Shown: piece by piece, positions 33,053 through 41,770 of the stretch | Numbering within the stretch: position 1 is the stretch's first letter | Layout: each line of letters begins with the position of its first letter | Origin: an uncultured Clostridia bacterium | GTDB taxonomy: Bacteria > Bacillota > Clostridia > Christensenellales > Borkfalkiaceae | Direction of reading: 5' to 3' | Length of the DNA: 59,421 nucleotides | NCBI GenBank assembly: GCA_946628865.1 | Contig: CAMOXE010000097.1 | Span: forward strand, 1 to 59,421 | The notes under the pieces: generated by a model | Databases searched by the model: none | Told to the model about the DNA's origin: nothing | The model's input: only the letters and a program-made list of their open reading frames with translations | Translations under genes and position numbers: made by a program

Positions 33053-36000
33053 ATGGGTAAATTCATTAGAGAAAACGAAAAAGTAACGAAAGCGAATTTT
33101 GCGTCAATGGCGAACCGTTTCCGCGCGGTTGCAAATGCAAAATTAACTACCGAGGGGAAATCCAATTACCGAATAGCGGTAGAAAAAATGGATAAACAAG
33201 ACAATCAGAGCGCTTATATCCAATTGCTTTCCGCGACCTACTGGAGTTTGTCCGACAGCGCCAAGCGCGAGTTTTGCTCCAAAGTACCCGACGCCGTCAA
33301 AAGAACCAACGCCAACAGAATCAAGAGTAGTATCAAAAGAGATTTGGCGGAAGATCCCGAATTTACCGACGAAAAGATCCTCGAACACGTCAAAGCGCAA
33401 GTCCGCGGCGCCAAAAATTACGACGAACTGCTCGCCGCGATCAAGCCGTATATTTCCCAGGAGCAATACAGGGACGTGGAATACAACCCCAAAGAAATGC
33501 GGGTGGAAATCCTCCTTGAAAATTTAGACCCCAAAAAAGTCAAGCAGACCTTTTTAGATACGATCGAAAACGCCGCAACTCCGGAAAAGGCAAAGGAGAT
33601 CGCTTTGCCGTTTATGGGCAAAGAGAAGTTAAGTCAGAGGAAATACAGCGAGTACGACGTTTCGGCGCTTTATTTCGAGGACTCGGCGGAGGAAATATTC
33701 GCTAAAGCTGCCGAAGAACTCGACGAGGAGGAAATCGTCGCTTTAGCCGAGGCGGCGGACAATTACCAACCTTTACATCTGAAATCGTGGGAAGAAGTCG
33801 GCACGCACCCGTTAGCCGAAAACACGGCGGCGGTCGAGAAGATGATTCTCGGCGATTCTTCCATGACGGAAGAGGAGAAAAAAGAAATAACGGAGATGAT
33901 GGATAAAATCGACAAAGATACCATCGTCACCGAAACCAAGCATATAAACACCCTTAACGACAGGCGTAAAAATACGGAAGAGGCGCTCACCAGGGACTCT
34001 GCCGCAGCGGGAGAAAACGCGCTCAAATCTCAGGGAGTGGATCCCGATCCCACCGAAATTACCTTAGACAACGAGACGGGCAGAATGATCCATGTAGTAA
34101 AAGAGAACAAGCAACAGGATTTCGAGAAAATGAAATCCATTGATATGCAGTTCTCCGACGAGACCAAAGCCGCGATAAAGTCGGTATTTGCCAAGTTAGA
34201 GCAATACGGCTACGTCAGCAACGGTATTCCGCAAGAGCAAGGCGTGAAGGCTTACGCTTTGACCGAATACTTGACCGCAATAAACAAATATCAAGAGGCG
34301 CTGGGAAAAGCCGTAGAGACAGGCGACGTGTCCGAAACAGTCAAGTACGCGAAAGAAGTCAACGTGCATAACGAGCAAGTCCACGACGTTTTAAACGAGG
34401 TGAGAGAGAACTTCCCCGTAGGCGACGGTGACGTATATCCGGGCAACGTCGATATTTTGCGTAACAACGCGTTTCCCGTCGACTTAAGACAGGACATAAA
34501 AGGCGTTTCGCAACTCAACGGATTATATGCGGTTTACGGTTTTATCAAAGAAAACAACCTCGACGTGGACGAGTTTTTGAATCACCCCGTGCAGTGCGTT
34601 GAGAACTATTATCGCGACGTTGTATACAAAGTATTCGAGCCTACGGAACAGATAAAAGGGAAGTCGGGCGCGGAAGCGATATGGGCGCTGACATATCGAC
34701 CGGCGGAAAACATAAAGTACACAAGTTTCGGTGTGCCGCGAGTAGTGGAAAGTCTTACCGCTCTTGAAAAAGACCCCGAACTTAAGGCGAAGAACTCCGC
34801 CGCGTCCGTTGCCTTTGCTAAGACGACTCACGATATGTTTAACGACCACGCGTTCGGCATAGATAGCGCCGTTGAGCAAAATTTGCCCGTAATAGACCGC
34901 GTACTTATCGTAAAAGAGCCGCAACTCGACGGAAAACTTTTAAACTGCAAGACTTTCGACCCGACGACGGGTAAAATCGTATCGGTATCCGACGGTTTCG
35001 ACGAAGCGGAGTATATTTCGCGCAGCGCCGAAACCCCGTTCGAGTTTTTGGAAAGGCTTAAAGAAAACGTCCATACCTATATGGATAAAAACGCCAAATC
35101 CGGGCATTTCGACAGATCCATTTCAAACGACTTTTTTATCGAGGCGGCGCAAAAGGCGGCGGCGAAGTACCTTATGGTAAAAGGTAGCGACGGCGCGCTC
35201 GGCGGGCAAGACGACGCGAGCAAGGAACTTCTCGATTTCGTCAACGACGGAAAGACTTCGCTCGACCGTTGGATAGACGAGAGATACCCGAACGCGACCA
35301 CGCCGGAAGAGAAAAAACGCGTTCAGGACCTTCACTCTTCCTTCGCTTGCAAAAATCCTTACGCCGATATGGTGAGAGATTGCAACTCTTTAGTAGCCTC
35401 GCAGATGTCTAAAAAAGGCAATACGCGCGAGTATGCGAACGGCGAAAGAGCGGCTAATTCGATAGACGAAAAGAAATCGTATTTAACGACGGCTTTCCGC
35501 GACGGAAAAGTGCCGCAGTCTTTCTATGCCGCGAGGATGGAGCAGTTAAACAAAGGCGACGTCGGCGCCAACATGCCGCCGTTTTTCCGCGCGGACGACC
35601 TTCCGAAACGCGATAAATATATTGAACAAACCTACGGCGCCGAGAGCGTAAACGAACTTTCCGAAGAAGAAAAAGATATGGTTTACGCGCACTTCGTCGA
35701 ACAAGCGCAAGCCGAAAAACGCACGTTCCTTACGAAGAAATATATGGCGGATAAAAACCTCGTTATAAAAGGTCAATTCTTCACTACGGAAGAGATGGAA
35801 GAGTTGTACCCCGCGGCAAGAGAAGAGGCGGAGCGCGCAAAGAGCGAGTACGAGGCGAAAGCGGCGGAGCAAAAAAGACAAGAAAACGAAAAAGAAAATT
35901 CGTTATCTCACGACGAGAGAGTAAAATTCGTTCGCGAGGGCGAAACCCTTACGAAAGAGACTTTCCCGGCGATGATGAATAGGTTTTTGTCGTACAATTA

Positions 36001-41770: not shown

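Follow-up and report, generated by a model that had tools for sequence, protein, structure and literature searches.

Large modular proteins beside a chromosomal type IV secretion cluster in Clostridia as candidate secretion substrates

Introduction

The closest described counterparts of the proteins discussed here are effectors of type IV secretion systems (T4SSs). The Bep effectors of Bartonella are encoded by paralogous genes beside virB/virD4, some of them contain repeated BID domains, and their secretion information is C-terminal. The Dot/Icm effectors of Legionella, whose type IVB system has adaptor proteins of its own, carry glutamate-rich 'E-block' signals at the C-terminus. Here we describe a family of large modular proteins encoded in a 59,421-nucleotide (nt) stretch of DNA from an uncultured Clostridia bacterium of the Christensenellales (assembly GCA_946628865.1, contig CAMOXE010000097.1; the window is this whole stretch), in which genes for family members of 2,905, 1,048 and 425 amino acids (aa) share a cluster with genes for a VirB4-type ATPase and a VirD4-type coupling protein. 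We read the three proteins as fast-evolving substrates of the adjacent T4SS that carry a C-terminal signal, and put the probability of this reading at about 0.45.

The likeness to the Bep effectors lies in the organisation of the genes, a T4SS-adjacent paralogue family that has grown both by gene duplication and by intragenic domain repeat. A reading of the sequence alone (hereafter the sequence-only reading) had called this combination unusual; the dual expansion stands, and its uniqueness has to be qualified since the Bartonella genes are organised alike. As judged by the absence of any Pfam match, there is no sequence or fold similarity between the two families, Bartonella is a diderm proteobacterium, and the Bep signal consists of a BID domain with a positively charged tail, whereas the tail in the window is acidic and predicted to be disordered and follows a module of ~940 aa. 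With the Legionella E-block the family shares a short acidic motif in an unstructured C-terminus, here as a would-be translocation signal, but the motif in the window has alternating hydrophobic residues before its acidic run and keeps a strict register of -31 to -34 from the C-terminus.

Nearly all known functions of Gram-positive T4SSs are in DNA transfer, and dedicated effector translocators among them are a long-standing question (PMC12857230, section 22). SspA-1 of the Streptococcus suis 89K T4SS is the only Gram-positive T4SS-secreted protein described in that review, as a first case, and as such it provides a functional precedent for a monoderm effector translocator (PMC12857230). SspA-1 is a single subtilisin-like protease of known fold from a pathogenicity island (PMC12857230), whereas the window family is large, of unmatched fold and encoded in a chromosomal cluster of uncultured commensals. 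A literature search on Christensenellales with T4SSs returned nothing relevant. The cluster is a concrete candidate for such a translocator: a chromosomal VirB4/VirD4 machine with neither relaxase nor integrase and with its own two-component system adjoins a large, fast-evolving family that has no evident signal peptide and shares a short C-terminal motif open to testing. The family is also a sizeable portion of protein dark matter, with 292 representative clusters of proteins that reach about 5,000 aa and, in the members tested, contain no Pfam domain.

The polyvalent proteins described by Iyer et al. (2017, PMC5512222) are another point of comparison. Like the window family they are very large, multi-module and linked to transfer genes, and are predicted to leave the donor. 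They differ in combining several different enzymatic or anti-defence domains, where the window family repeats one module; the lack of any Pfam domain in the family members tested means that the enzymatic or anti-restriction domains characteristic of polyvalent proteins are absent from them. The window family is moreover absent from plasmid and phage collections and lies in a chromosomal cluster without relaxase or integrase.

Three modules in one protein

The 2,905-aa gene (33053..41770; + strand, like all genes of the cluster) had been proposed to contain three tandem copies of the architecture of the standalone 1,048-aa protein, and blastp, shuffle controls and a profile hidden Markov model (HMM) all agree that it does. 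Module A (A-type; 33053..35887, aa 1-945) has orthologues at the equal position in relatives P0011-P0014, module B (B-type; 35888..38662, aa 946-1870) is also found as the first module of two-module relatives of ~2,000 aa, and module C (C-type; 38663..41497, aa 1871-2815) is of the same type as the standalone protein. Each module is ~940 residues long, and the three modules and the standalone protein are mutually 26-30% identical (blastp E 1e-39 to 1e-129). The standalone protein aligns over its full length with aa 1878-2896 of the 2,905-aa protein (blastp E 1e-127, 30% identity) and gives further matches at aa 304-914 (E 5e-58) and aa 1137-1872 (E 2e-49). Pairwise comparisons of the modules score 176, 201 and 145 bits (E 3e-49, 3e-57 and 1e-39), while 30 residue shuffles of the subject reached at most 25.4 bits against the 145-201 of the real modules, and the module HMM recognises exactly three full-length domains.

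The landmarks of the earlier hand alignment lie where they had been placed: the N-terminal anchors at aa 4, 959 and 1899 of the 2,905-aa protein (aa 21 of the standalone protein), the ETK core at aa 370, 1296 and 2236 (standalone aa 354), the LDRxLxVxEPQ motif at aa 614, 1535 and 2479 (standalone aa 596) and the P-x-F-x-A-D motif at about aa 844, 1808 and 2736 (standalone aa 868). The full-length match given above also bears out the view that module 3 is the nearest to the standalone protein, with which it has its tail in common. The proteins are as rich in lysine, glutamate and aspartate as had been remarked (K+E+D = 28-34% of residues), and carry net charges of -114 (2,905-aa protein) and -48 (standalone). 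The two outcomes named in advance as speaking against the sequence-only reading, a lack of internal repeats or a match to a characterised but unrelated family, did not occur.

At the DNA level, similarity between the modules is limited to just three patches of 25-63 nt with 71-80% identity, and this near-total loss indicates that the duplication is old. The A-, B- and C-type modules each group with modules of equal position in other assemblies (the standalone protein with the C-type), which implies that the A-B-C arrangement is both old and maintained; its order recurs in at least five other assemblies, and B-C and C-only proteins also occur. A recent tandem amplification is ruled out by the near-absent DNA similarity together with this grouping by position. 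The copies are not equivalent, since the K/E-rich linker and the acidic C-terminal motif are kept by the last module only and are absent after the internal modules A and B. The module is in turn composite, its C-terminal third and its core each occurring separately; thus the match of the 425-aa protein (7087..8364) to the module profile is limited to positions 624-936 (E 2e-28), i.e. the C-terminal third.

The C-terminal tail

The K/E-rich tail of the 2,905-aa protein (41498..41767), predicted to be disordered by reference to its modelled homologue in the standalone protein, contains the motif IVIDLDD (41672-41692) 31 residues before the C-terminus and a weak upstream copy, IAVNIEE (41549-41569). 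Members near and far end in the same manner, in a K/E-rich stretch followed by Phi-x-Phi-D-[LIV]-[DE]-[DE]: the standalone protein has VVVDLDE (5186-5206), the 425-aa protein ITIDVSE (8263-8283), other members variants such as ISIDLDD, and distant members for example EPIEVEE. The strict pattern is present in the last 70 residues of 46 of the 162 family proteins, against a background of 0.012 per 70 aa, and in these 46 carriers it starts mostly 31-34 residues from the C-terminus, often with a second copy near -68 to -72. It is kept behind any body, be it one, two, three or seven modules, a lone C-terminal sub-module (the 425-aa protein) or arrays of that sub-module (P0028, P0031). Across the window and all loci compared, 21 of 518 open reading frames (ORFs) have the motif in the register -31 to -34, and 19 of the 21 are family members; the other two are an antisense ORF and the 1,300-aa protein of the window.

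The AlphaFold2 model of the full-length standalone protein, a test that could have revealed a tail packed on the module, gives residues 959-1048 a predicted local distance difference test (pLDDT) score of only 31-41 and no secondary structure, next to a confident body, which argues that the tail does not pack onto the module. The predicted disorder leaves unsupported the idea, also considered, that the tail forms a structural strand against the module. On this model the tail amounts to a C-terminal extension, predicted to be disordered, that bears a short linear motif, and what is observed in the way of a secretion signal is an acidic motif at -31 to -34 on a low-pLDDT tail.

Two further observations concern C-terminal motifs. 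In the 1,300-aa protein (9152-13054) the sequence TVIDLED stands 31 residues from the C-terminus, the same register as in the family, and its orthologue at locus L001 (23940-24146) has TVASLDD followed by an acidic tail; the occurrence in the 1,300-aa protein may be either chance or a shared docking motif. A distant clade, made up mostly of giants of up to 4,863 aa, has in place of the acidic motif a basic end motif, R-R/K-x-S-[VIFL], mostly 22-37 residues before the C-terminus and often with G-P near the end (P0045, P0048, P0050, P0051, P0061, P0088, P0093, P0100, P0104, P0110, P0125 and P0143). The basic motif occurs in 14 of 147 representatives (expectation 0.011 per 60 aa), of which two are chance-like, and the two loci of this kind that were examined have no T4SS gene nearby.

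Predicted fold and breadth of the family

No known domain had been recognised in the sequence-only reading, and Pfam, NCBIfam, PHROGs and PADLOC likewise have no match to the three window proteins. Pfam also gave zero matches in 13 giant relatives, and PDB sequence searches, whether with a single protein or a profile, hit nothing but designed helical proteins of low complexity. The 13 relatives, of 1,912-4,863 aa (eleven of them 2,700-4,863 aa; alignment A5), were without a Pfam-A match at E <= 0.001, which is an unusually large amount of protein sequence to lack annotation.

The module was modelled with AlphaFold2 from residues 1-945 of the standalone protein and a 55-sequence alignment. The model is confident (mean pLDDT 90.6, predicted template modelling score 0.80) and nearly all helix, as had been surmised from the letters. 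From a helical N-terminal region (30-296) it continues through a beta meander of four strands (301-332), the helical core (335-612) and a small hairpin (616-625) to a helical C-terminal region that includes two very long helices (770-836). Foldseek searches of the model against the PDB (best E 1.1) and the viral set BFVD (best E 0.07; TM-score <=0.12) gave no match at E <= 1e-3, so that, as far as a predicted structure allows, the fold is new: confidently predicted and matching no PDB entry. The most conserved polar residues are E379, K383, Y385, N448, D450, R453, R463, D465, R546, E549 and N564 (standalone numbering). Six of them, E379 to R453, sit in two core loops that are ordered but not helical, 369-387 and 438-459, and the remaining five follow within the core; in the model the two loops are likely to form a putative ligand-binding or catalytic site. 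The family thus belongs to no curated family tested, its fold is predicted to be new, and its kind, at the same tentative level as the substrate role, would be a known one, that of T4SS-linked modular substrates.

When 1.84 billion representatives were searched exhaustively with a profile, 292 clusters matched at E <= 1e-3 (222 at E <= 1e-10 and 73 at E <= 1e-30), where a word-indexed protein search had found nine relatives only. The shortest proteins have about 850 aa and the longest about 5,000 aa. There are single-module proteins of 850-1,050 aa, proteins of about 1,500-1,630 aa with one module and an extra C-terminal sub-module, proteins with two modules (about 2,000 aa) or three (2,887-3,099 aa) and a 4,367-aa protein (L016) with seven matched stretches, besides arrays of the C-terminal sub-module alone (e.g. 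P0028, P0031) and giants of 4,000-5,000 aa whose sole recognisable part is an embedded core. The named hosts are a Christensenella sp. metagenome-assembled genome (MAG), several rumen and gut Clostridia MAGs and a Lachnospiraceae MAG, and the GC content of family loci spans 27% to 61%. No match to the family was obtained by tblastn against 72,556 plasmids and 50,697 phages. At the low end of this range, a 27%-GC contig (L019, 1-19454) carries five consecutive large genes (1526+, 855, 1531, 1630 and 1506 aa) with no Pfam match, four of which are family members with one module and an extra C-terminal sub-module each.

Linkage to the secretion machine

A family gene lies directly 3' of VirB4 in the window and at loci L002, L004, L008, L014 and L016. 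At L004 VirB4 is followed by two tandem paralogues, at L014, in a 30% GC genome, by two tandem single-module paralogues, and at L016 by the 4,367-aa family protein and then LuxS; at L001 two paralogues (2,014 and 2,015 aa) stand upstream of a block in the order histidine kinase, 425-aa protein, response regulator, 1,323-aa protein and VirD4. In the window the placing of the 2,905-aa gene inside a VirB4/VirD4 cluster is as had been described, 27 nt after VirB4, with VirD4 at 13054-15546. The machine and the family diverge at very different rates. Between L014 and the window VirB4 is 64%, the pilin-like protein 67% and a membrane protein 44% identical, and the family proteins are about 16-18% identical, with the gene order kept despite this deep divergence; in closer relatives VirB4 is 83-88% and VirD4 83% identical, against 33-51% for orthologous modules. 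Evolution is therefore far faster in the family than in the machine, and the post-VirB4 family member ranges in length from 909 to 4,367 aa.

Whether homologues always sit next to VirB4/VirD4 genes had been raised as a question, and the answer is mixed: the family is linked to T4SS genes, that of the coupling protein included, in the window and at six related loci, but four distant members lack such linkage. A 27%-GC contig with at least four tandem paralogues has no T4SS gene within the 19.5 kb seen. The acidic tail motif was seen in 7 of 7 T4SS-adjacent loci and is absent or atypical in the four non-adjacent ones. The window proteins further have the properties of cytoplasmic precursors and, as had been proposed, contain neither a transmembrane segment (maximal Kyte-Doolittle 19-residue mean 1.06) nor an apparent signal peptide, the N-termini being hydrophilic by inspection, with no signal-peptide predictor run.

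Substrate, machine part or bystander

On the substrate reading, the tail would act as a C-terminal translocation or docking signal that is read by VirD4 or another part of the machine, the protein would be fed unfolded through the VirB4/VirD4 machine, and the folded modules would take effect beyond the producing cell, either at its surface or within a cell that it contacts. The fast change in module and paralogue number would then reflect diversifying pressure, as is often the case for exported proteins. The operon-like linkage to VirB4, the lack of an evident Sec signal or transmembrane segment and the fixed-distance motif on a tail predicted to be disordered together argue for cargo rather than a machine part, as do the loss of the tail after internal modules and the rapid turnover of sequence, modules and paralogues. 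The absence of a relaxase and integrase was also counted in favour, as was the chromosomal setting of the cluster, which is flanked by ParAB at one end and by LuxS and the genes leading to rpoBC at the other.

Several points weigh against this reading. The organisms are uncultured and the support is computational. To our knowledge, folded proteins of 2,900-4,400 aa would exceed the size of known T4SS substrates. That VirD4 recognises the motif is purely inferred, and the presence of TVIDLED in the signal-like 1,300-aa protein means that a cytoplasmic reading of the motif is not the sole option. Next to the family genes there are no small genes of immunity type. P0048, P0101, P0123 and P0036 have no T4SS gene in their visible flanks, and for the four-module giant P0036 adjacency had been predicted beforehand and failed. 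Lastly, the integrative and conjugative elements (ICEs) of Mycoplasma, which have a related machine, reportedly lack several canonical VirB-type components as well (PMC12857230), so that the absence of a relaxase does not speak decisively against DNA transfer.

A bolder form of the substrate reading, which we consider rather doubtful, would make the entire 40-kb cluster a domesticated, relaxase-less chromosomal T4SS that serves uncultured Christensenellales-like Clostridia and low-GC relatives as a dedicated Gram-positive protein translocator, with the family as effectors bearing a new acidic signal and the 425-aa protein as a secreted FlgM/ExsE-like regulator.

It is unlikely that the family is instead an accessory or structural part of the T4SS, either a scaffold or adaptor on the cytoplasmic side, at the base formed by VirD4/VirB4, or subunits exported to form a wall-spanning extracellular structure, with the C-terminal motif as a docking peptide that tethers the protein to the machine. 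Docking by way of a peptide tethered through a disordered linker is common, and the slot after VirB4 is kept even where family identity has dropped to about 16-18%. Gram-positive systems are also without VirB10, and an unidentified component probably fills a VirB10-like signalling role (PMC12857230). However, a length of 909-4,367 aa at the same post-VirB4 position, one to at least four tandem paralogues and extreme divergence are hard to fit to a stoichiometric machine part; the proteins contain no transmembrane segment, and the related machines of Mollicutes ICEs have no homologue, their post-ATPase protein being unrelated and ending in a hydrophobic anchor-like segment.

Likewise unlikely is the proposal that the family has nothing to do with secretion and consists of giant cytoplasmic proteins, e.g. 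cytoskeletal, scaffold or enzymatic ones, that merely share an operon with the T4SS in one lineage, the C-terminal motif serving otherwise, e.g. in partner docking or turnover. It would account for the four of 11 loci with readable flanks that show no nearby T4SS gene, for the core embedded in Clostridia proteins of 4,000-5,000 aa (one of them from the Lachnospiraceae MAG) with other C-terminal motifs, and for the lack of an export signal of established type. What stands against it is the tight, probably co-transcribed linkage in seven loci with VirB4 identity down to 64%, the coincidence of acidic tail and T4SS adjacency noted above for linked and unlinked loci, and the fast turnover of paralogues and modules.

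It is highly unlikely that the T4SS is a domesticated DNA-transfer machine and the family a set of co-transferred 'polyvalent-like' proteins that protect DNA or blunt recipient defences, for although the machine is of the Mollicutes ICE type and such ICEs mediate chromosomal transfer (PMC12857230), giant multi-module proteins of conjugative loci with predicted delivery to the recipient are an established theme (PMC5512222), and charges of -114 and -48 are acidic enough that they could permit DNA mimicry, the cluster has no relaxase, recombinase or integrase, the family matches no sequenced plasmid or phage in the collections searched, no Pfam domain is found in the window proteins or the 13 giant relatives, and one module is repeated in place of different activities combined.

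The surrounding gene block

The window is a chromosomal stretch in which ParA and ParB (29-1628) are followed by a 40-kb block with every gene on the + strand. The block begins with the standalone paralogue of 1,048 aa (2144..5290; one C-type module plus tail), a histidine kinase of LytS type (5601..6893; Pfam His_kinase and HATPase_c), the 425-aa paralogue (C-terminal sub-module plus tail) and a response regulator (8361..9155). The 1,300-aa protein that comes next has a Cys-containing, signal-like hydrophobic N-terminus (by eye) and a weak Big_3 match, and its gene is followed by that for the VirD4-type coupling protein (13054..15546) and by one for a 4,026-aa protein (15543..27623). The latter has a hydrophobic N-terminus, a hydrophobic C-terminal segment followed by basic residues and a weak Calx-beta match as its sole Pfam match; it is 60% identical to its L002 counterpart (L002 1-4572) and probably serves the T4SS cluster as a giant surface adhesin. 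A pilin-like protein of the Mbov_0395 family (27768..28052; NCBIfam), a 295-aa protein without a family match that has, by eye, a Cys-containing, signal-like hydrophobic N-terminus (28054..28941), a 464-aa membrane protein of the MMCAP2_0566 / Mbov_0396 family (28952..30346; NCBIfam) and the VirB4-type ATPase (30365..33025) lead up to the 2,905-aa gene, which has the Shine-Dalgarno sequence GAGAGGA and starts 27 nt past the VirB4 stop. No relaxase, integrase or transposase gene is present within the block, and the intergenic gaps are too short for one.

The nearest plasmid and ICE relatives of this VirB4 are Mbov_0397-family ATPases of Spiroplasma and Mycoplasma (25-32% identity), and the order of pilin-like protein, transmembrane protein and ATPase (window 27768-33025; L017 7255-15664) is that of the Mbov_0395/0396/0397 trio of Mycoplasma ICEs. 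A machine of Mollicutes type is thus seen here in a Clostridia chromosome of ~50% GC, in a cluster without relaxase or recombinase. In Mycoplasma ICEs the trio is directly followed, as here, by a large gene, that of the Mbov_0399 family, but the Mbov_0399-family protein ends in a hydrophobic anchor-like segment and the window family has no transmembrane segment. Homology between the two was examined and dropped, with no NCBIfam match and E-values of 0.2-5 for the family HMMs against the M. hyorhinis member; homology to Spiroplasma plasmid neighbours was rejected as well.

On its 3' side the block is followed by LuxS, a phosphatase, KDPG aldolase, PfkB, RadA, IspDF, rpoB and rpoC. LuxS starts 21 nt past the 2,905-aa gene and is 3' of a family gene in three assemblies (also at L005 and L016), and from 41770 the + strand has no strong terminator-like site until 45213-45254; on these grounds the cluster may be co-transcribed with the downstream quorum-sensing and sugar-metabolism genes. 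At the other end of the block, the 425-aa gene sits between the histidine kinase and the response regulator (window 5601-9155), an order that is also found at L001 (16591-20159), and one may speculate that its product is a secreted regulator that couples expression to secretion.

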